From contig CAVTQK010000015.1 in assembly GCA_963736855.1 (NCBI GenBank), forward strand, positions 64,001-128,000: a stretch of 64,000 bases of DNA. Direction: 5' to 3'. Below the pieces are notes generated by a model, which ran no database searches, was not told where the DNA came from, and was given only the letters and a program-made list of their open reading frames with translations. The DNA is from an uncultured delta proteobacterium (lineage in GTDB: Bacteria > Desulfobacterota > Desulfobacteria > Desulfobacterales > UBA2156). Of the stretch, positions 1,189 to 57,151 are shown piece by piece (positions within the stretch are counted from its first letter, which is position 1; every line of letters begins with the position of its first letter). The position numbers and the translations under genes are program-made.

Positions 1189-1824
1189 TCAACCGGCATG
1201 CGTCGGCGTACCGTTGAGGATCGCTTCAAGGTCTTCCATGCGGTGGAGGTGATAGTCGGCGGACAGTGCCGCATTTTTATAGGCAATGAAGAAGACCCCA
1301 GCACCTTCAGCGGCTCGCGCATCGACATCCGAGTCCCCGACGTAGACGACCTGTCGGGGATCGGTCTGAAAATAAGTTAAAATCTTTTGCAGCTGCTCGG
1401 GGTGAGGTTTTGGGTTGACGACATCCCGGGCGCAAACGATCAGATCAAAATGGCCTGTCAGACCGTGCGATTTGATGACCGCATCCATGGTATCGGTGCG
1501 GTTGGTGGCGATGGCCGTCTTATAACGGGGCCTAAGTCGGGAAAGAAGTGGGAGCAGTCCTTTTTCCATTTCCATTTCCTGGATAAACGGACGGTAATCC
1601 ATCTGTCTGCGGAAGCGCTCCGCCGCTTGATGTTCCTCGTCGTCGGGAAACAGATAACGCATGGATGCCGCCACCGCATGTTTGTGCACGAATGCGAATT
1701 GTTCGGCTGTTATTTCCGGCTTTCCCAGGTGCTGGAGGACCGAGTTGTAATAGGCCCTATTGGCTCGATCGGTGTTGAAGAGGACTCCGTCACAATCAAA
1801 GACAACGATCTTGATACCTTTCAT
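1189..1824 (-). CDS. HAD-superfamily hydrolase (phosphoglycolate phosphatase-like)
   Basis: Motifs FDCDGVL, ATNR, KPHP and YVGDSDVD. Likely start MKGIK at 1824 overlaps the upstream stop (ATGA). Confidence 0.9.
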   Translation of the reverse strand: MKGIKIVVFDCDGVLFNTDRANRAYYNSVLQHLGKPEITAEQFAFVHKHAVAASMRYLFPDDEEHQAAERFRRQMDYRPFIQEMEMEKGLLPLLSRLRPRYKTAIATNRTDTMDAVIKSHGLTGHFDLIVCARDVVNPKPHPEQLQKILTYFQTDPRQVVYVGDSDVDARAAEGAGVFFIAYKNAALSADYHLHRMEDLEAILNGTPTHAG

Positions 1825-2561
1825 TGAGTTGTTTCTTCTTTTCCAGGCAGAGGATCGGACAGCTCTCCATAGACCCATATCCGGATCTCCGGGCGCATGT
1901 TCAGGTCGGTGGGAAAGACGACGACTTCATGATAAGTCCCTTTGGCAGCCTGGTTGTTGATAACCGTCAGCAGGTATTCTTCGGTCGTTTCGCTTTGGAT
2001 TTTCTCCAGGGAATAGGTGACGTTTTTACCCTTGGCATCGGCGAGTTCCGCAAGGGTGAATGGATATTTTTTCTCGGGAATGATGCGGACTGTACCCTTG
2101 ATGGGAAAGCCTGCCGGTCCTCGCAAAATGATCCTGGCCGGTGTGATGGAAGCGAACTTTTCAACGGTTCCTTCGATAACGAAGGCGATATAGGGTTTAT
2201 GGGTGTCGTTGGTGGAAATAATCACCTGCTTGGCCACCCGTCTGCCGCCGTAGCCATAAGTGTTGATTTTTACGGTGATCTGTCCCTCGCCGCCGGGAGG
2301 GATTTGCCTCGAATACGAGGCCGCCGTACACCCTCAGTCTGTTCTGACGTTGAATATTTTCAGTTCTTCGTTTCCCTTGTTGAAAATCTTGAATTGGTGG
2401 TCCACCTCAAGGCCCTCAAGGACGGTGCGGAACACGTGCTTTGGGTTAGGTGCGACCGCATCGGGTCCTTTCAATGCAGGGGAATCTTTTGCAAAAACGG
2501 TTTGAATCGTCAAAATGGCTAATAATGCCGCCAAAATCAGCATGGTTTTTTTTACTTGCAT
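1821..2561 (-). CDS. Exported DUF1573-like (Ig-fold) protein, predicted selenoprotein (TGA 2336-2334 = Sec)
   Basis: Track ORFs 2334-2561 and 1821-2237 are in frame. Read-through gives a signal peptide plus ...IFNVRTD-U-GCTAASYSRQIPPGGEGQITVKIN, matching the 'CGCT...I.PG..G.I.V' pattern of DUF1573. A hairpin follows the TGA. Confidence 0.8.
2306..2321 (-). promoter_or_regulatory. Candidate bacterial SECIS hairpin
   Basis: GCCTCG-TATT-CGAGGC starts 12 nt 3' of the in-frame TGA on the minus strand. Confidence 0.65.
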
Positions 2562-2744
2562 TCAACAGGCTCCTTATCCGGTGAAGCATTCATCGTAGAC
2601 AGGCTATACGGCTTCAACTTCCTTTTCTTTTTATCTTTACCAATAAAGAGTGGATCTGACAAGGCTGTCTTTGATCTTTATTTTCCGACAGATACCTTCC
2701 GCCGGTTGGAAACTTGCGCCCTCTGACCCGAGCCTTGAACCGGA

Positions 2745-5204
2745 TCACATTAGGTCATAGGGATCCACGTCGATGATCACCTGGACGCCGGGAGGCGGAC
2801 GCATTCCCTTGCCATGGATCATCAAATCCGAAACAAACCGATTCAGTGTGGAGACTTTCCGGCTTTTTAAAAGGATATGCCATCGGAATCGGCCGGCGAT
2901 TTTAGAAAGCGGTGCTTCTATGGGACCCAATACCATTAATTCTTGCATACGGGCTTTGGTTCCGGTTTTCAGGCCGCGACACGCCGATCCCAGCTCCACG
3001 GCCCACTTTCGGGTCTTGTCCACATCTTTCCCCGATACCTTGAAGGCGATGATACGGGAAAACGGCGGATAGTCTAAAGACTTGCGGAACCGAATCTCCT
3101 GGTTATAAAAACGTTTAAAATCCTGGTCTCTGGCTGAGATAATGCTGAAATGGTCGGGGTTGAAGGTCTGAAGGATCACCCGGCCGGGTTGATCACCGCG
3201 GCCGGCCCTGCCGGAGACTTGGGCGAGTACCTGGAAGGTCCGTTCCGATGCCCTGAAGTCGGGGAAATTCAAAGATGAATCCGCGCAGATGATCCCCACC
3301 AGGGTGATATTCGGGAAATCGTGGCCCTTGGCGACGATCTGCGTGCCGATCAGGATATCGATAGCTCCGGTTTTCAACTCCGTCAGCAGTGACAGAAGTG
3401 ATCCTTTCTTTCGCGTGGTGTCCCGGTCCATCCGAGCCACATTCGCCTCAGGAAACAGGGTCTTAACGGCGGCTTCCAGTTTTTCTGTGCCCATTCCCAA
3501 GTTTTTAATCGTTCCGGACCCGCAAAGATCGCACGGACCGTCGGCCTGCCGGGTGTATCCACAATAATGGCAGACATGGAGGTTGTCGCCTTTATGATAG
3601 GTCAAAGAGATATCGCAGTGTCGGCAGGTGACCGGCTTCCCGCAAACCATACAAATCGGAAAACCGGCGAACCCCCGGCGATTGAGAAAAAGGAGGACCT
3701 GCTCGCCCTTGTCGAGGGTTTGTTTCATGGCGCTGACAAGCGCATCCGTTAAATGGCGACGGGCGCCGCGTCGGTGTCGGGATTCCTTTAAATCCACCAC
3801 CGTCACTTCCGGAAGCTTTCGCTCTTCAATTCGGCCGGGTAACTCCAAACCAACGAACTTCCGGGCTCGGACGTTAAAGTGGGACTGAATCGACGGAGTT
3901 GCGGATCCCAAAAGCGCGATGCTCTTTCCGAGCATGGCCCGAACCACCGCCAGATCCCTGGCCTGGTAGTGGAGGTCCGTTTCCTGTTTGTAGGATGTGT
4001 CATGCTCCTCGTCGACGATGATCAGACCGATGCGTTTGAGAGGGGCAAAAACAGCCGATCTGGCACCGATGGTCAGATGAGCGTCTCCTTTGAGGATGCG
4101 CATCCACTGGTCGCGGCGTTCACCCTTAGACAGGCCGCTGTGCAGTACTGCCACCTGGTTGCCGAATCGCGCCCGAAAGCGCCTTTCCGTCTGGGATATC
4201 AGGGCGATCTCAGGGACCAGGATCAGGGTGGATTGGCCACGGTTCAGGGCTTCCGCCGCCAGATGCATATACACCTCGGTTTTTCCGCTTCCGGTCACTC
4301 CTGCGAGCAGGAAGGTCTGATACCCCTTTCCCATAGCCGAAAGGACCGCTGTAACTGCGCTTTCCTGGGAATCGGTCAAACGAAGCTCCCGATCCGGTGC
4401 GACAGGTTCACCGAAGGGGTCCCGATAAGCTGTTTTGGAATAGACCCGTATCCAGCCCTCCCTTTCCAGAGATGGGATCAGGCGTGAAGCATTCCGGACA
4501 ATATCAAAAAGCGCTCGAACCGGTGCCTCCTTGAGATCTTCGAGGGCGGAAAGGATTTGTTTCTTAGCCTTGGAAATCTTGCTTGTGGATGGGAGCGGAT
4601 TGACCAGAGCGACGTATCGTTCCTGTTTGACCCCTACGGGCCCTTTGAGCACCTTTTCCTTTTGGATCCAGCCGAGATTTTTCAGGGGGTGTAACCGGGC
4701 TTCTCGAAAGCGATTCTTCAGGATCTGCTTAAAAGTGGTGGGCTTCACAGGGCCGGTTTTCAAAAGGCCTAATATGTGCAGGTCCTCCGGATTCGCATCC
4801 CCGGATTCCAGAATGCTGCGCCCTTTTTCAGTCAGAGAAACCATGTCCAGATCATGCACGGCGATGCCGGATGGAAGGGCGCACGCGACGACTTCTCCTA
4901 CAGGGTGCAGGTAATATTCGGAGATCCATTTGAAAAACGGGACCATATCCGACGGAAAGAGAGGAAGCGGGTCCAGCACATCCAGAATCGACTTGATCTC
5001 GAGAGATTCGATGCTTTCAGAGGTTCCCAGGATATATCCGCTCAGACGCCGCCGGCCAAAGGGAACCAGGACCTTTACCCCCGGTTCAACGGCTCCTATG
5101 GAAGCGTTGGGAATCCGGTAGGTAAAGGTCTGGTGAACCGGAAGAGGAATCGCGACCTCGACGAAGGTTGATCCAGGATGTTCGGGTTTTTTCTTGACTT
5201 GCAT
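2745..5204 (-). CDS. priA: Primosomal protein N' (replication restart helicase)
   Basis: GVTGSGKTEVY, DEEHD.SYKQ, four CxxC pairs, KGHDFPN, QVSGRAGR, C-terminal DVDP. Start may be 5204 or 5222. Confidence 0.97.
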   Translation of the reverse strand: MQVKKKPEHPGSTFVEVAIPLPVHQTFTYRIPNASIGAVEPGVKVLVPFGRRRLSGYILGTSESIESLEIKSILDVLDPLPLFPSDMVPFFKWISEYYLHPVGEVVACALPSGIAVHDLDMVSLTEKGRSILESGDANPEDLHILGLLKTGPVKPTTFKQILKNRFREARLHPLKNLGWIQKEKVLKGPVGVKQERYVALVNPLPSTSKISKAKKQILSALEDLKEAPVRALFDIVRNASRLIPSLEREGWIRVYSKTAYRDPFGEPVAPDRELRLTDSQESAVTAVLSAMGKGYQTFLLAGVTGSGKTEVYMHLAAEALNRGQSTLILVPEIALISQTERRFRARFGNQVAVLHSGLSKGERRDQWMRILKGDAHLTIGARSAVFAPLKRIGLIIVDEEHDTSYKQETDLHYQARDLAVVRAMLGKSIALLGSATPSIQSHFNVRARKFVGLELPGRIEERKLPEVTVVDLKESRHRRGARRHLTDALVSAMKQTLDKGEQVLLFLNRRGFAGFPICMVCGKPVTCRHCDISLTYHKGDNLHVCHYCGYTRQADGPCDLCGSGTIKNLGMGTEKLEAAVKTLFPEANVARMDRDTTRKKGSLLSLLTELKTGAIDILIGTQIVAKGHDFPNITLVGIICADSSLNFPDFRASERTFQVLAQVSGRAGRGDQPGRVILQTFNPDHFSIISARDQDFKRFYNQEIRFRKSLDYPPFSRIIAFKVSGKDVDKTRKWAVELGSACRGLKTGTKARMQELMVLGPIEAPLSKIAGRFRWHILLKSRKVSTLNRFVSDLMIHGKGMRPPPGVQVIIDVDPYDLM

Positions 5205-5294
5205 CAGTGGATCTCTTAGCAATCCTTTATGGCTTTATAACCGAAAAGATTCCACTCTTTTATCCGGGAAGGCATATTTCTTTGGACCTTTGTC

Positions 5295-24716: not shown

Positions 24717-25799
24717 ATGGGGATAACGCGCAGGAAATTTTTAGTATGGATGGGATCCGCCGGAGCGGCGGCAACCGTCGGCAACGGGGCCCATGCAGCT
24801 GCCACCAAGGAATTCAAGGGGCATCCGAATGCCTCCGGCGTCCTGTTTGATACGACGCTATGCATCGGCTGTCGAAAGTGCGAGGAAGCGTGCAACCGTG
24901 TCAATGATCTACCCCCCCCTTCCCAGCCGTTCAGCGACTTGGCGGTTTTAGACAAACCGCGAAGGACCACGGCAAAGACTTATACGGTGGTCAACCGCTA
25001 TGCGGACACCGGTTCCGGATCGGGACCGGTATTCAGGAAAATCCAGTGCAATCACTGCCTCGAACCGGCATGCGCGTCGGCGTGTTTCGTGCGGGCGTTT
25101 ACTAAAACAGCAACGGGAGCCGTCACCTATGATGCTTCAGTCTGTGTGGGCTGTCGGTATTGCATGATTGCCTGCCCTTTTGAAATCCCGACCTACGAGT
25201 ACAATGAAGCGTTCACGCCGCGGATTATGAAATGCACCCTGTGTCATCCCCGGCTGGTTAAGGGTCTGCTGCCGGGGTGTGTGGAAGCGTGTCCGAAAGA
25301 AAGCCTCACATTCGGTAAACGCGATGATTTGCTGAAAATCGCCCGGGAACGTATCCGGAAATATCCGGGCCGATATGTGGATCATATCTACGGAGAGCGG
25401 GAAATGGGGGGAACCAGCTGGCTTTATCTCTCCTCGGTCCCGTTCTCTGACATCGGGATGCGGGAGGACTTGGGGACCGCTCCGGCACCAGAACTGACCG
25501 CCGGCGCACTGGGGGCCGTACCCATGGTCGTCGGACTTTGGCCGGTCCTGTTAACGGGCGTCTATGCCATTTCCAAACGCAAGGAAAAGATCGCATCTCA
25601 GGAAAAAAACCAGGCGGTTGTCGAAGCCCTGGAAAAGGCTCGGCTGGAAGCCGAGGCAAAACTGAACGCCTTCCGGGAAAAGTCTGAGAAGGAAAAAGCC
25701 CAGGCCCTTGAAAAGGCGGTTGCGAAAGCCTTGGAAGAAGCTAAGAAAGAAATGGTCGAAATAAAAATTGAAAAAAACGGAGCCGAGGAGGAATCCTGA
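24717..25799 (+). CDS. hmcB: Hmc complex iron-sulfur subunit
   Basis: Tat motif TRRKFL, four Fe-S motifs, C-terminal TM and Ala/Glu/Lys-rich tail. Confidence 0.9.
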
Positions 25800-26971
25800 T
25801 GTCCGAACAAACCGCCGTCGTAAAAAAATCAATTTTCAGCCCATTCAATATCATTGCGGGGATTATCGTGGTCATCGGTCTGGGAATCACCGCGCAACGG
25901 TTCACCAGCGGCTTGGCCTCGGTGTCGAATCTCTCGAACTATAATCCCTGGGGCATATGGATCGGGTTTGATCTACTCGTGGGTGTCGCCTTGGCTGCAG
26001 GCGGCTTCGTTACCTCCGCCGCAGTCTATATCTTCGGATTTAAAAAGTACCACAGTGCCGTACGTCCGGCCATCCTAACCGGATTTCTCGGCTATACCCT
26101 GGTGGTGCTGGCTCTCCATTATGACGTGGGCCGGCCTTGGCGCCTGCCATATCCATTTATTATTCAGCAAGGAACTACCTCTCTTTTGTTCGAGGTGGCA
26201 GCCTGTGTAGCCCTTTATCTGACGGTGCTCTTCATCGAGTTTTCACCTGCTGCCCTGGAGTGGCTGGGCCTCAAACAGGCCAGGAACCTGGTTGTCAAAC
26301 TCACCATGGTATTGACCATCTTCGGAGTCGTCCTTTCCACGCTCCATCAATCCTCTTTGGGGGCTCTTTTCTTGATTACACCGTCCAAGCTGCATCCGCT
26401 GTGGTATTCATCCTATCTTCCCATCTACTTTTTTGTTACGGCAGTTATCGCGGGGTTGTCCATGGTCATTTTTGAAAGCACCTTGTCCCACCGTTACTTT
26501 CACGACGAGATGGATGCCACCCACCTTGCGGAAAGCGCCTCCGTGACCCTGGGTTTTGGAAAAGCGGCTTCCCTGGTGCTGGTGGGATACTTTTTCATCA
26601 AGGTTATCGGAATCGCCGCTGGGAATCACTGGCGCCTACTGGGCACCGGTTACGGAATCTGGTACCTCGTGGAACTTCTCGGATTCGTGGCGCTTCCGGC
26701 GTTTCTTTACGCCATCGGCGTCCGGGAGAAAAACCTGAAGGTGATCCGGTGGACGGCGGCGCTCACCGTGCTTGGCATCGTGGTCAACCGGTTCAATATC
26801 TGCTTGGTTGCGTTCAACTATCATCTCCCTTCATCGGAACGTTATTTTCCCCACTGGAAGGAGATCGGCATATCGCTCTTCATCGTCACCCTGGGGTTGA
26901 TCGCGTATCGGTTCATTATTACGCGGATGCCCGTATTGTATGAACACCCGGAGTACCGGGACACACATTAA
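25799..26971 (+). CDS. hmcC: Hmc complex NrfD/HybB-type membrane subunit
   Basis: PWGIWIGFD, DVGRPWR, STLHQSSLG; polytopic membrane protein. Confidence 0.9.
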   Translation: MSEQTAVVKKSIFSPFNIIAGIIVVIGLGITAQRFTSGLASVSNLSNYNPWGIWIGFDLLVGVALAAGGFVTSAAVYIFGFKKYHSAVRPAILTGFLGYTLVVLALHYDVGRPWRLPYPFIIQQGTTSLLFEVAACVALYLTVLFIEFSPAALEWLGLKQARNLVVKLTMVLTIFGVVLSTLHQSSLGALFLITPSKLHPLWYSSYLPIYFFVTAVIAGLSMVIFESTLSHRYFHDEMDATHLAESASVTLGFGKAASLVLVGYFFIKVIGIAAGNHWRLLGTGYGIWYLVELLGFVALPAFLYAIGVREKNLKVIRWTAALTVLGIVVNRFNICLVAFNYHLPSSERYFPHWKEIGISLFIVTLGLIAYRFIITRMPVLYEHPEYRDTH

Positions 26972-26986
26972 AGGAGCGGCAAATCC

Positions 26987-27133
26987 ATGGACGGTATCTT
27001 TCACACATTTCACGATTTTATGGTCCATACCAAGGCCATAACCTACCTGCTGATCGTCGTCGCTTTGGCGGGCATCACCTGGTGGTGGGGGTTCCTGACG
27101 GAAGGCGACCAGGACGAGCATCCTCATGAGTAA
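26987..27133 (+). CDS. hmcD: Hmc complex small membrane subunit (48 aa)
   Basis: Below the track cutoff. AAGGAG RBS; MDGIFHTFHDFMVHTKAITYLLIVVALAGITWWWGFLTEGDQDEHPHE; lies between hmcC and hmcE. Confidence 0.82.
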   Translation: MDGIFHTFHDFMVHTKAITYLLIVVALAGITWWWGFLTEGDQDEHPHE

Positions 27134-27151
27134 GTTGCAAGGAGACAACCG

Positions 27152-27829
27152 ATGTATCAGTTTGTAACCGGACCTTTGGCATGGCTGGCCTTCGGCATTT
27201 TCTTTGTCGGTTGCGTTGTAAGGATTGTATTGTATGTTAAAGGTCTCAACTGGCAGATGGATCGGGTAACCTACGGGGTCAACATATCGTATGGTGTCAG
27301 GGGAGCCCTGCGGTCGATTTTTTACTGGCTTTTACCCTTGGGGACTACAAGCTGGAGAAAGAACGCCGGATTCAATATCGTTGTTTTCATCTTCCATTTC
27401 GGGCTATTGTTCACCCCTTTGTTTTTATTGGCTCACAATATTCTGCTGAAGGAAAGATGGGGATTCGGTTTATGGTCCATGTCTGAAGCGGCGGCGGACG
27501 GGATGACCGTTTCGGTGATCGTCACTGGACTGATTTTGGTTTTCCGGCGCATCGCTTATCCGGAGGTTCGGATCATTACCAATGCACACGATCGCCTGAT
27601 CATGGCCATTTCCATAGCGCCGTTCGTAACCGGTATACTGGCCCATCATCAGATAGGAAACTACGATTTTTGGCTGATCCTCCATATATTGTGCGGTGAG
27701 ATCTTTTTAGCTGCCATACCGTTTACCAAATTATCCCACTTTGTCCTTTTCTTTGCATCAAGGGCTCAACTGGGTATGGATTACGGAATCAAACGGGGAG
27801 GCATGAAAGGAAAAGGGCTGGCGTGGTGA
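27152..27829 (+). CDS. hmcE: Hmc complex NarI-type cytochrome b subunit
   Basis: Five TM segments, conserved His residues, IPFTKLSH. Confidence 0.9.
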   Translation: MYQFVTGPLAWLAFGIFFVGCVVRIVLYVKGLNWQMDRVTYGVNISYGVRGALRSIFYWLLPLGTTSWRKNAGFNIVVFIFHFGLLFTPLFLLAHNILLKERWGFGLWSMSEAAADGMTVSVIVTGLILVFRRIAYPEVRIITNAHDRLIMAISIAPFVTGILAHHQIGNYDFWLILHILCGEIFLAAIPFTKLSHFVLFFASRAQLGMDYGIKRGGMKGKGLAW

Positions 27830-27874
27830 TAAACACGCGCTGTGACTCCAACCGAAGGGATTCGGGAGAAAAAA

Positions 27875-29263
27875 ATGCCTGAAGGAAAACTCTGCAATAA
27901 ACAACCGGTGACCACCAAAGAACAACTCGATGCACTTCTCGCAGATAAAGGTGGCAAGCAGTATTATGAAGAGATGAGCCATCTGGAGGTGGATAACAAG
28001 GCGCTTTGGGCTACCCTCCAGAAAACTTGCAAATCCCGGCTTAGAACTTGGCTGGAGATCTGTACACACTGTGGTTTGTGCGCGGAAAGTTGCTTTTATT
28101 ATCTAGCCAATGGCCGGGATCCCAAGCAGGTACCTTCCTACAAGATCCAGGCAACCTTGGGTGAAATGATTCGACGTAAGGGAGACGTGGACAATGCCTT
28201 CATGCAGATGACCATGGACACCGCCTATTGCAAATGCACCTGCTGCACGCGCTGCGGCGTTTACTGCCCTTTCGGAATCGATACAGGCATTATGTTCGGC
28301 TATGTACGCGGCCTCCTCTTCTCTCAGGGTTTCACCCCGTGGGAGATGAAAATCGGATCCGGAATGCACCGTATCTACCGGGCCCAGATGGATGTTACCA
28401 GCGAGGATTGGGTGGAGACCTGTTCATGGATGGCTGAGGAATATGCAGACGATTGGCCGGGTTTGGAGATTCCAGTCGATAAGGAAAATGCGGACATCAT
28501 GTATACCGTCAACGCAAGGGAACCGAAGCATTACCCGGAAGACATTGCCGAGGCCGCAATCCTGTTTCATATCGCCGGGGAAAATTGGACCGTCCCCAGC
28601 GAAGGGTGGGAAGAGACAAGCCTGGCCATGTTTGCCGGGGACTGGGCCGGCTGCAAGATGCAGGTGGAAAACGTCTATGCAGCCATGAGCCGGTTGAATC
28701 CGAAACGCATGGTGGTCACCGAGTGCGGTCATGCCTATCGGGCCACCGTCATTGAGGGGCCATATTGGGCTGGATTGAAGACTGGAAAAACCCCCGTCGA
28801 AAGCTACCACTATGTGGAATGGGTGGCCGAGGCGCTGAGGACCGGGAAGCTCAAGATCGATCCGGCCAAGAAAATCAAGGAGCCGGTAACCTACCAGGAT
28901 TCATGCAACTACATTCGGAATGCCGGCCTGAAAGATATCGCCCGGGAGATTATGAGTTATATTGCCGAGGATTTCAGGGAAATGAATCCGTGTAAAGAAC
29001 ACAATTTCTGCTGCGGCGGCGGAGGCGGATTGAACGGTATCGGACGATATCGGGAACAGCGGAATATCGGCATGAAAGTCAAACTGAATCAGATCGTTGC
29101 GACCGAGGCAAAACTGGTGGTCGCCCCCTGTCACAATTGCTGGGATGCCATCCGGGACATGGAGGAAATATACAAACCGGGCATCCGTTGGAGTTTTTTA
29201 AAGCCTCTTCTCATCAGCATGGTGGAGGTCCCGGAGCATCTGAAACCCTCGGAGGAGGAATGA
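27875..29263 (+). CDS. hmcF: Hmc complex HdrD-like Fe-S (CCG domain) subunit
   Basis: [38 protein letters not shown]. Likely start ATG 27875. Confidence 0.9.
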
Positions 29264-43364: not shown

Positions 43365-44414
43365 ATGAACCCAGAAACCAGGATACGACTGACCACCACG
43401 GTTGCCGGTGCGGGTTGAGCTTCCAAACTGGCTCCAGGGGACCTGGACCGGGCATTGTGCGGCTTGAAATTTCCAACCGATCAAAATGTCATCGTGGGTC
43501 TGGATCGTGCCGATGACGCAGGCGTCTACCGGGTGTCGGAGGATCTGGCTCTTATTCAGACGGTGGATTTTTTGACGCCCGTAGTGGACGATCCGTACGC
43601 GTTTGGACAGATCGCTGCGGCCAACGCACTCAGTGATGTCTACGCCATGGGGGGAACGCCGAAGACCGCCATGAACCTGGTGGCGTTTCCGGCCAAGGAC
43701 ATGAGCCTGGAGATATTGCGCAGCATCCTGGAGGGAGGTATCGACAAGATCAAAGAGGCCGATGTGGTGCTGATCGGCGGGCACAGCATTGAGGACAAGG
43801 AGTTGAAATACGGGCTCTCGGTGACGGGTTTCATTCATCCGAACGCGGTGCTGACGAAAAAGAATCTAAAGGCGGGGGATTGCCTGGTACTAACCAAGCC
43901 CATTGGTACGGGGATTATCAACACGGCCATTAAGGCTGCTATGGCGCCGGAAGACCTTGTAAGGGAAGTTACCCGGATCATGGCGACCCTCAACCGGGGA
44001 GCGGCGGAGACCATGAAGGGATTTGATGTTCATGCGTGCACCGACATTACCGGCTTCGGGCTTTTGGGGCACCTGACGGAAATGATGGACGGATCCGGTA
44101 TGCATGTAAAACTCTTTTCAAACCGGGTGCCTGTAATCCAGGAGACGCTCTCTTTTGCCGCCATGGGGCTGATCCCGGGCGGTGCCCATAAGAACCGGGA
44201 ATTTTTTAAAAAAAGAATTGAGTTTTCCGGTTCCGTGGAGCTTGCGCTCCAGGACGTGCTTTTTGACCCTCAGACCTCCGGAGGGCTGTTGATCAGCCTT
44301 GATGCCGCAAAAGGCCCGATACTGGTCGATGATCTCCGAAACGCAAATATTGCTTCCGCCGCGATCATCGGAGAGGTGACTTCAGACGGACGGGAGATTT
44401 TATCGGTCCTTTAA
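43365..44414 (+). CDS. selD: Selenide, water dikinase, Sec-containing (TGA 43416-43418)
   Basis: MNPETRIRLTTTVAGAG-U-ASKLAP is in frame with the track ORF at 43455; DDAGVY, QTVDF, NALSDVYAMGG, DPQTSGGLL. Confidence 0.95.
43433..43447 (+). promoter_or_regulatory. Candidate bacterial SECIS hairpin
   Basis: TCCAGG-GGA-CCTGGA starts 14 nt after the TGA. Confidence 0.7.
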
Positions 44415-55784: not shown

Positions 55785-56267
55785 TCAATTTTTCTTTAAA
55801 AACATCTTTAAGGTCATGGTCTTATAGCTGTCGGTATGGATATATTTCAGTGTAGAGACAAGATCCTTGGCGGAGATGTATCCCGGTTGGTTCCCGATTT
55901 GATTCCCGGTTTCGGTCATGAAAAATGAGACGGGAAGCCCGCGTATGCCAAACTGGGATGCTACCTTCGGCTCCCGGTCGTAATCGACCTTGATGCTGAC
56001 GAAAGAATTATTCAGGTAATCGATGACGTCGGGGTTCATGAAGGTCTCTTTAGCCATTTTGGTGCAGTAGGAACACCATTCGGCCCAGAAATATACAAAG
56101 ACCTTTTTGTTTTCCTTTTTACTTAAAGCCATCCCTTCCGGATAGGTATGCCAGCGCACTTTGGAGACGGCTTCCGGACCGGCAGAAGAAGCCCGGGTGA
56201 GGAAAAAGGGGATTAATAAAAGGAGAATAAAGTAGATCCACCGGGATTTTATTTTCATGATGATCAC
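55785..56267 (-). CDS. Exported thioredoxin-fold protein
   Basis: Signal peptide, WCSYC, cis-Pro loop GLP. Confidence 0.88.
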   Translation of the reverse strand: MIIMKIKSRWIYFILLLLIPFFLTRASSAGPEAVSKVRWHTYPEGMALSKKENKKVFVYFWAEWCSYCTKMAKETFMNPDVIDYLNNSFVSIKVDYDREPKVASQFGIRGLPVSFFMTETGNQIGNQPGYISAKDLVSTLKYIHTDSYKTMTLKMFLKKN

Positions 56268-56965
56268 CTCGAAAAATTTAGGAGACCCAGTTTATCGGTT
56301 ATCAGCAAGAGCCCCATTCCGATCAAGAGAATTCCTGCAACAGCGTTAGCATATCGGATTGTCTTTTGTGTTTTTCGGACTATGGCCAAGAAAAAATGGA
56401 TGAAAACGGAAAGGATCAAAAAGGGGATGGCCAGTCCGGCCGCATAGGCGGCCAGAAGAAGCGTCCCTTCCAATACCGTTTCCTGGTTTCCGGCAAGGAT
56501 CAGGATGGAACCGAGCAAAGGACCGATACATGGGCTCCACCCGGCTCCGAAAGCCATTCCGATCGCCAGCGTTCCAAAGGCATGGCCAGGCTTGGTCCTG
56601 AGGTGGACACGCTTTTCGAAATCAAGGGCCTTAATACGAAAAATCCCGCTGAGGTGGATCCCGAAAAGGAGAATCATGAAACCTCCTATGACCCGGACAA
56701 GATTCTTGTATTCAAAAAGAACGCCCCCCAGGTAAGAAGCCGACGCCCCCATAAGGATGAAGACCAGGGAAAAACCTGCAACAAAAGAGAGTGTGGCCGC
56801 CAGGACCCGATGACGGATGGCGAGATTGTTATTCGTGAGCTGTTCCAGGGACAACCCGGTGATGAACGTGAAATAGGCCGGCACCAAAGGCAGAATACAA
56901 GGAGAAATAAATGATAAAAAACCTGCCAGAAAGGCGGCGGGATATGAAACCGCTTCCGTCAGCAT
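56264..56965 (-). CDS. ccdA: Cytochrome c biogenesis protein CcdA
   Basis: SFISPCILPLVP and GWSPCIGP. Confidence 0.93.
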   Translation of the reverse strand: MLTEAVSYPAAFLAGFLSFISPCILPLVPAYFTFITGLSLEQLTNNNLAIRHRVLAATLSFVAGFSLVFILMGASASYLGGVLFEYKNLVRVIGGFMILLFGIHLSGIFRIKALDFEKRVHLRTKPGHAFGTLAIGMAFGAGWSPCIGPLLGSILILAGNQETVLEGTLLLAAYAAGLAIPFLILSVFIHFFLAIVRKTQKTIRYANAVAGILLIGMGLLLITDKLGLLNFSR

Positions 56966-57151
56966 GGAAAAGGATCTCCTAAAGGAATTGTCACCGTAAC
57001 CGATAGGTTTGATCCGGTTTCTGCTTCAAAAAAGAGGAGCTGCCTTTCAGGCAACGACAACTTGCAGAATTCGGAATGGAAAAGCTCCTTATAGTCTAAA
57101 TTGGGAGGAGTATTTTTGCTCAATATAAATACCCTATTAATTTTGTCAATT

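Follow-up and report, generated by a model that had tools for sequence, protein, structure and literature searches.

Does an in-frame TGA in the DNA of an uncultured delta proteobacterium of the Desulfobacterales separate two short genes, or does it encode selenocysteine (Sec) within one, and what might the resulting protein do? The question arises near one end of the 64,000-nucleotide stretch of DNA that was analyzed, referred to here as the window. Inspection of the sequence places one frame of 246 codons at positions 2561–1821 of the minus strand, with a TGA at 2336–2334 as its sole interruption; the two listed open reading frames, 2561–2334 (75 aa) and 2237–1821, lie in this same frame. 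The first-pass annotation had described this arrangement, two reading frames split by a single TGA with a 246-residue read-through product, and its RTD-U-GCTAA motif is found as NVRTD-U-GCTAASY, in which the Sec position is residue 76 (U76). No Shine-Dalgarno-like site is seen by inspection ahead of the internal GTG at 2237, and the ATG of the downstream HAD hydrolase gene overlaps the stop codon of the proposed selenoprotein gene (ATGA). The features of the locus, together with the selD gene of the window, are as follows.

1189..1824, minus strand: HAD-family hydrolase gene, conserved downstream neighbour (domain match)
1821..2561, minus strand: predicted OS_HP2/DUF1573 selenoprotein gene, 246 codons, TGA read as Sec (frame, profile matches, codon column)
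1857..2153, minus strand: domain 2, a second β-sandwich, about residues 137–235, with no conserved Cys and no Pfam match (model, alignment)
2160..2450, minus strand: domain 1, OS_HP2/DUF1573 Ig-like (ASH/PapD-like) β-sandwich, residues 38–134 (NF041425)
2306..2321, minus strand: SECIS-like hairpin, GCCTC(G)-loop-(C)GAGGC (folding, covariation)
2328..2333, minus strand: Gly77-Cys78, the rest of the U-G-C motif, both invariant (85/85 rows)
2334..2336, minus strand: in-frame TGA, putative Sec76 (TGA 68, Cys 16, Ser 1 of 85 distinct relatives)
2490..2561, minus strand: predicted signal peptide, residues 1–24, with a basic start, hydrophobic core and VFA end (sequence, hydropathy)
2570..2575, minus strand: Shine-Dalgarno-like AAGGAG, 8 nt before the ATG at 2561 (sequence)
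2745..5222, minus strand: priA (primosomal protein N'), conserved upstream neighbour (homology)
43386..44306, plus strand: selD match with its own in-frame TGA at 43416, supporting the Sec machinery and outside the selenoprotein locus (profile match)

The N-terminus of the read-through product resembles a signal peptide: residues 7–19 form the most hydrophobic stretch of the protein, with a mean Kyte-Doolittle value of 3.0, and are followed by VFA-K. By inspection and hydropathy, export is predicted, in line with the exported protein envisaged in the first-pass annotation. A scan for promoters and terminators returned matches at chance level. Three other TGA-GGN-TGY motifs in the window were rejected as chance occurrences, the open frames upstream of them being at most 17 codons long.

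Comparison with related sequences makes it almost certain that the in-frame TGA of the OS_HP2/DUF1573 gene is decoded as selenocysteine. The machinery whose absence the first-pass annotation had considered (selA, selB and selC) is present: the genome, rated 100% complete, carries tRNA-SeC, selA, selB and selD, with the three protein genes above their profile cut-offs. The selA gene sits just past the end of the window, and selD, which the first-pass annotation had placed in the window, is found there at 43386–44306. When neighbour proteins were used as tblastn queries, 17 further Cys/TGA sites were found in the genome, one of them doubtful, mostly in HdrA-, MvhD-, FdhA- and HesB-like genes. 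Elsewhere in the genome, three Fe-S oxidoreductase-like genes (G000:C8:98949, C6:143231 and C13:61748) have an in-frame TGA aligned to Cys in NTE-U-GH or WPE-U-GH, with a hairpin after each.

Relatives of the protein are found in 191 of 201 sampled genomes of the class Desulfobacteria, its own included, and the closest named record, 90% identical, is from a Desulfobacterales MAG of this class. Among the 150 class matches listed (135 more exist), a hand count gives an in-frame TGA in 135, no stop in 14 and only a TAG in one. The selA gene is matched in 197 of the 201 genomes, including G084, whose sole match to the protein is a Cys copy; it is unmatched in G071 (950 contigs) and G090 (100 contigs), both of which have TGA copies.

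A working set of 85 distinct copies (97 matches minus 12 duplicates) allows column 76 to be read at the DNA level: TGA is observed in 68, TGC in 13, TGT in three, TCT in one and TGG in none, in a set that includes the loci for all 15 non-TGA rows and thereby over-represents Cys copies. Thus 84 of the 85 homologs have TGA or Cys at this position. Gly77 and Cys78 are invariant in all 85 copies, Cys78 is the only conserved Cys besides position 76, and His55 is kept in 84 rows. Identity to the window protein averages 41% upstream of the TGA; downstream, it averages 50% for the rest of domain 1 and 39% for domain 2. Both signs of a genuine Sec codon that the first-pass annotation had named, alternation with Cys and conservation on either flank, are therefore observed. 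At least five Sec/Cys changes on well-supported branches are needed on a quick maximum-likelihood tree from which 13 columns around the motif were left out, the more careful search being unfinished. A paralog on contig C23 of the same genome, 37% identical, also carries TGA at this column.

Several further observations concern this region of the alignment. Column 75 is Gly in 54 of the 68 TGA copies and Ser or Thr in 11 of the 16 Cys copies. The single Ser codon (TCT, L048:932-934) is found in a gene just upstream of selB-like ORFs with GTP_EFTU and SelB-wing domains. Tandem duplicates are seen at L071, L093 and L094, with Sec and Cys copies in two genomes and two Sec copies in the third.

The hairpin reported in the first-pass annotation, a perfect GCCTCG/CGAGGC stem 12 nt downstream of the TGA, is present in the sequence: GCCTCG (2321–2316) pairs with CGAGGC (2311–2306) around TATT. 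Folding of the 86-nt region gives z = −2.1, a level reached by 3 of 200 shuffles; for the 27-nt hairpin segment, comparison with synonymous-codon shuffles gives p = 0.013. All five pairs of the core form in 44 of 68 TGA copies versus one of 16 Cys copies, the median folding energies are −8.65 and −1.35 kcal/mol, respectively, and synonymous shuffles are beaten at p < 0.05 by 47 of 68 TGA copies versus one of 16 Cys copies, all of these counts resting on related and hence non-independent sequences. Across 66 distinct TGA rows, pairing holds in 88% of cells, as compared with 30–54% in slid controls, and four of five pairs vary on both sides. The hairpin covaries and tracks the TGA codon.

The hairpin falls within the ranges for bacterial SECIS elements given in the available text of PMC13188914 (stem of 4–16 bp, loop of 3–9 nt, 16–37 nt from the UGA, minimum free energy of −7.5 kcal/mol or lower), with a stem of 5–6 bp, a loop 17–18 nt from the UGA and an energy of −11.0 kcal/mol. 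The G of the bacterial consensus, at the first two loop positions, is present in the 5-bp form (loop GUAUUC), absent in the 6-bp form (loop UAUU) and kept in just 23 of 68 TGA copies; some bacterial SECIS elements deviate from the model (PMC13188914, same text). A second hairpin coincides with IPPGGEG, a protein motif that the Cys copies also have, and the hairpin of the paralog is weaker, at −5.2 kcal/mol.

That the TGA instead ends a pseudogene or one half of a split gene, encodes Trp or arose through faulty assembly is scarcely credible. Public databases do give some footing for a stop or for Trp, as the 3' half alone is found in six of 19 public protein matches (P0002, P0003, P0005, P0007, P0009 and P0010) and W stands at the column in two (P0004 and P0006). 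The DNA of L011, to which P0006 is nearly identical, reads TGA, and the W entries are therefore probably gene-caller readings of TGA. Neither a stop nor Trp would readily account for a TGA that 68 of 85 relatives share within conserved flanking sequence, that alternates at the DNA level with Cys codons and never with TGG, and that is accompanied by a hairpin tracking the codon. As to assembly error, two other studies provide contigs that run across the codon, and a change to TGC or TGT, the result that the first-pass annotation had looked to as contrary evidence, is not found among the differences listed (24 of 25 and 13 of 19, respectively). An RNA run, X20, in which 9% of the sampled words occur, gave no more than two short contigs. 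The gene call presented here corrects the annotation, in that the databases hold the 3' half alone or the Trp reading.

By its profile matches, the gene belongs to the known OS_HP2/DUF1573 UGC selenoprotein family. The read-through protein scores 125.6 bits against NCBIfam NF041425, "OS_HP2 family (seleno)protein", which has a curated cut-off of 100. Against Pfam DUF1573 (PF07610), it scores 66 bits for a cut-off of 26.1, which is passed only when the halves, scoring 20.7 and 25.7 bits on their own, are joined. Pfam PF22544 is also above its cut-off on domain 1. The question of novelty raised in the first-pass annotation is answered in the negative, as the family is already catalogued (NF041425; PMC1976440, PMC2398784, PMC9312934, PMC13188914). 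OS_HP2 is one of six new families in the 2007 study of Olavius symbionts by Zhang and Gladyshev (PMC1976440) and was tied to pfam07610 with the motif UxC (PMC2398784). A "DUF1573 domain-containing protein, UGC" is listed in reviews of 2022 (PMC9312934) and 2026 (PMC13188914), the latter under "Predicted with high confidence". In the accessible portions of PMC10434189 and PMC10682907, DUF1573 proteins appear only in expression tables. A literature search whose coverage mostly excludes subscription journals returned no functional study of DUF1573, PF07610 or OS_HP2 proteins.

The predicted structure agrees with the Ig-like fold put forward in the first-pass annotation. An AlphaFold2 model, computed on a 91-row alignment with Cys in place of Sec, has a mean pLDDT of 94 and a pTM of 0.82 and comprises two all-β sandwiches. 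U76 is modeled in a short loop and C78 opens the next strand; the Sec-x-Cys site proposed earlier is borne out by the invariant Gly77-Cys78 beside the TGA/Cys column. Fold searches bear on domain 1, with domain 2 barely covered. Domain 1 resembles ASH/PapD-like folds, among them Porphyromonas gingivalis 2qsv (106 residues aligned at Z 13.4 and rmsd 3.7), VesB (96 residues at Z 12.3 and rmsd 1.9), in which the likeness, as in VesC, is to the C-terminal domain, and the PapD-like domains of HYDIN and pilus chaperones (Z 8–10), all at sequence identities of only 6–18%. The aligned domain of 2qsv has no CGC at the motif. A sequence search of solved structures returned 2qsv at E 0.009 and other rows at chance level. 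A thioredoxin-fold oxidoreductase of the DsbA/MauD type was considered and rejected, since the model is all-β with no helix of four or more residues and the motif is UxC, not CxxC. The 149 newly listed representatives include 34 proteins of at least 1000 residues, giant repeat proteins of this fold, of which 33 lack CGC; judged from these sequences, the DUF1573 Ig fold is therefore a common spacer and the CGC/UGC motif is its special part.

The neighbours of the window copy give no functional hint. Among 62 loci with flanks of about 4 kb, priA is found in 24 and a HAD-like match in 38, and no MauE or CcdA gene is found within about 4 kb of the 38 loci that carry priA or HAD markers (0/38); the window copy, between priA and the HAD hydrolase gene, belongs with these. 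In six loci (L050, L052, L054, L077, L082 and L088, one family), the gene lies directly before gspG-gspE-gspF, and the encoded protein has a long low-complexity C-terminal tail with a conserved ELKKKFE end. At L028:847-1641, an N-terminal OmpA-like peptidoglycan-binding domain is fused ahead of the UGC domain. Within the window, the stretch 55788–57025 on the minus strand, about 54 kb from the selenoprotein gene, holds a CcdA-like gene (SPC, SPC motifs) and, after it, one for an exported thioredoxin-like protein (WCSYC), and genes judged by inspection to encode NrfD-like, NarI-like and Fe-S subunits form a membrane redox cluster at 25772–29260 on the plus strand.

Redox genes adjoin the paralogous group. 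The paralog of the same genome (L074:1504-9884, G000:C23 around 125173-125850, with TGA at the same column) lies in the gene order ArsR, ArsP permease, ArsE-like thioredoxin, thioredoxin, DUF1573, CcdA-like, rhodanese-like ORF (by inspection), CDF-MauE fusion and ACR3. The CcdA-like protein keeps the Cys residues of its SPCH and GSCT motifs, and the thioredoxin has CIPC. In 25 loci of this group, which are mutually related and comprise 20 picked by likeness to the paralog and five earlier ones with such markers, a CcdA-like gene is found in 21, MauE in 19 and either in 24; by best markers, ArsP is found in nine and ACR3 in five. By hand count, 13 of the 25 have MauE, which carries a CGCF motif, either immediately upstream of the DUF1573 gene or fused to it. 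In-frame fusions of MauE (CGCF) to a UGC domain are seen at L066:4481-5296 (minus strand) and L068:3314-4132 (plus strand), in two genomes of one genus. Among 36 long homologs, chosen by length from the 150 best representatives, redoxin/thioredoxin domains are found in 13 and peptidase C39 in four, with no DsbD, MauE or CcdA fusion among the 36 scanned; a search for longer fused forms provided five proteins that lack both DsbD and MauE domains, a weak piece of evidence. In the organism's own genome, VKOR is found and DsbB is not.

On balance, we lean toward the window protein being a thiol-exchange relay outside the cytoplasmic membrane. This reading is based on the invariant G77 and C78 with no other conserved Cys, the MauE/CcdA neighbours, the MauE fusions and the redoxin/thioredoxin domains of long homologs; for the window copy itself, it is drawn from homology to the paralogous group with its MauE/CcdA context. 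In such a relay, the Sec76 selenolate would attack a disulfide and Cys78 would resolve the product of this attack, closing a strained Se-S ring in the manner of other CGC redox sites; BrxA/YphP is one protein with such a site (PMC5790435, available text). U76 and C78 would cycle between the selenol/thiol form and the Se-S ring outside the membrane, and the protein could pass disulfides or electrons between MauE/CcdA-type membrane proteins and exported thioredoxin-fold proteins or folding clients, in either direction, oxidizing or reducing. According to the available text of a preprint on MauE (bioRxiv 10.64898/2026.03.05.709764), MauE of Desulfatibacillum and Caldithrix replaces DsbB through its CGC motif, and a thioredoxin-like intermediary is suggested.

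Two other roles for the selenoprotein have to be weighed against the relay. U76 and C78 might serve as ligands for a soft metal or metalloid (As(III), Hg, Cu or Zn) in a periplasmic carrier or scavenger, as the arsenic genes and CDF transporter domain around the own-genome paralog and the near-invariance of His55 would allow. We regard this as unlikely: CcdA/MauE are steadier neighbours (24 of 25 loci) than ArsP or ACR3, the fusion partners are MauE and redoxins, just two thiol/selenol ligands are conserved, and the conserved neighbours of the window copy include no metal genes. A role mainly as a PapD-like folding chaperone or envelope scaffold, in which the U-G-C bond is only structural or regulatory, appears quite improbable. 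Its basis is the match of domain 1 to HYDIN/ASH, VesB and pilus-chaperone folds (Z 8–13), the position of the gene directly before the gsp genes in six loci and the single OmpA-like fusion; yet a shared Ig fold at such low identities shows no function, the near-absence of CGC from the giant repeat proteins marks the motif as an added feature, and class-wide retention of Sec would be hard to explain for a structural bond.

The Cys copies may bear on selenium supply. In seven of 13 Cys-only loci (L035, L036, L037, L041, L043, L045 and L046), neighbouring genes carry Cys where their homologs in the genome of the window have TGA (HdrA, MvhD/FlpD, FdhA and HesB-like), versus one doubtful case in 48 TGA loci, a comparison of related loci that sees only neighbours of the HdrA, MvhD, FdhA and HesB-like families. 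These Cys islands suggest a selenium-independent backup. It is conceivable, though doubtful, that OS_HP2/DUF1573 is a near-universal exported selenoprotein of the Desulfobacteria that partners the newly described MauE disulfide pathway (or CcdA) in the periplasm without itself being a thioredoxin, with Cys copies kept in islands as a backup for selenium starvation.

The family has been catalogued since 2007 as a predicted selenoprotein, and the window gene is a further member. Added here are its spread through the class, the repeated Sec/Cys switching, a SECIS element whose loop G is unconserved and gene-context evidence pointing to an extracytoplasmic thiol relay with MauE or CcdA. Because of this gene context, the function would be directly testable in cultured sulfate reducers or through a Cys homolog in E. 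coli.

Among known systems, the N-terminal domain of DsbD (nDsbD) has an Ig-like fold. Like the DUF1573 protein as predicted, it is a periplasmic non-thioredoxin domain, and its Cys pair relays electrons; the DUF1573 paralogous group adjoins CcdA/DsbD transmembrane genes. The likeness is an analogy only. The two differ in the spacing of the Cys pair, which is CxC in the DUF1573 protein; nDsbD is absent among the 50 fold matches listed, and no match to sequence-family models of the DsbD N-terminus was returned. The closest relationship is to the OS_HP2 family itself, with which the window protein shares the domain, the UGC (UxC) motif with one Sec, the stem-loop past the UGA and the Cys homologs. 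Nothing defining differs, and the window copy adds a second β-sandwich outside the family model; the accessible portions of the OS_HP2 papers give no function, location or gene context. BrxA/YphP and BrxB (DUF1094; PMC5790435, as available) share a C-G-C type two-thiol site with the window protein. The Brx proteins are cytoplasmic and have a thioredoxin fold, whereas the window protein, as known from its sequence, would be an Ig-like sandwich whose site begins with Sec. MauE, in the preprint text cited above, also has a C-G-C type two-thiol site like that of DUF1573, and it often adjoins members of the family and in some cases is fused to them; unlike the window protein, for which an Ig-like sandwich is predicted, it folds as a helical bundle in the membrane.
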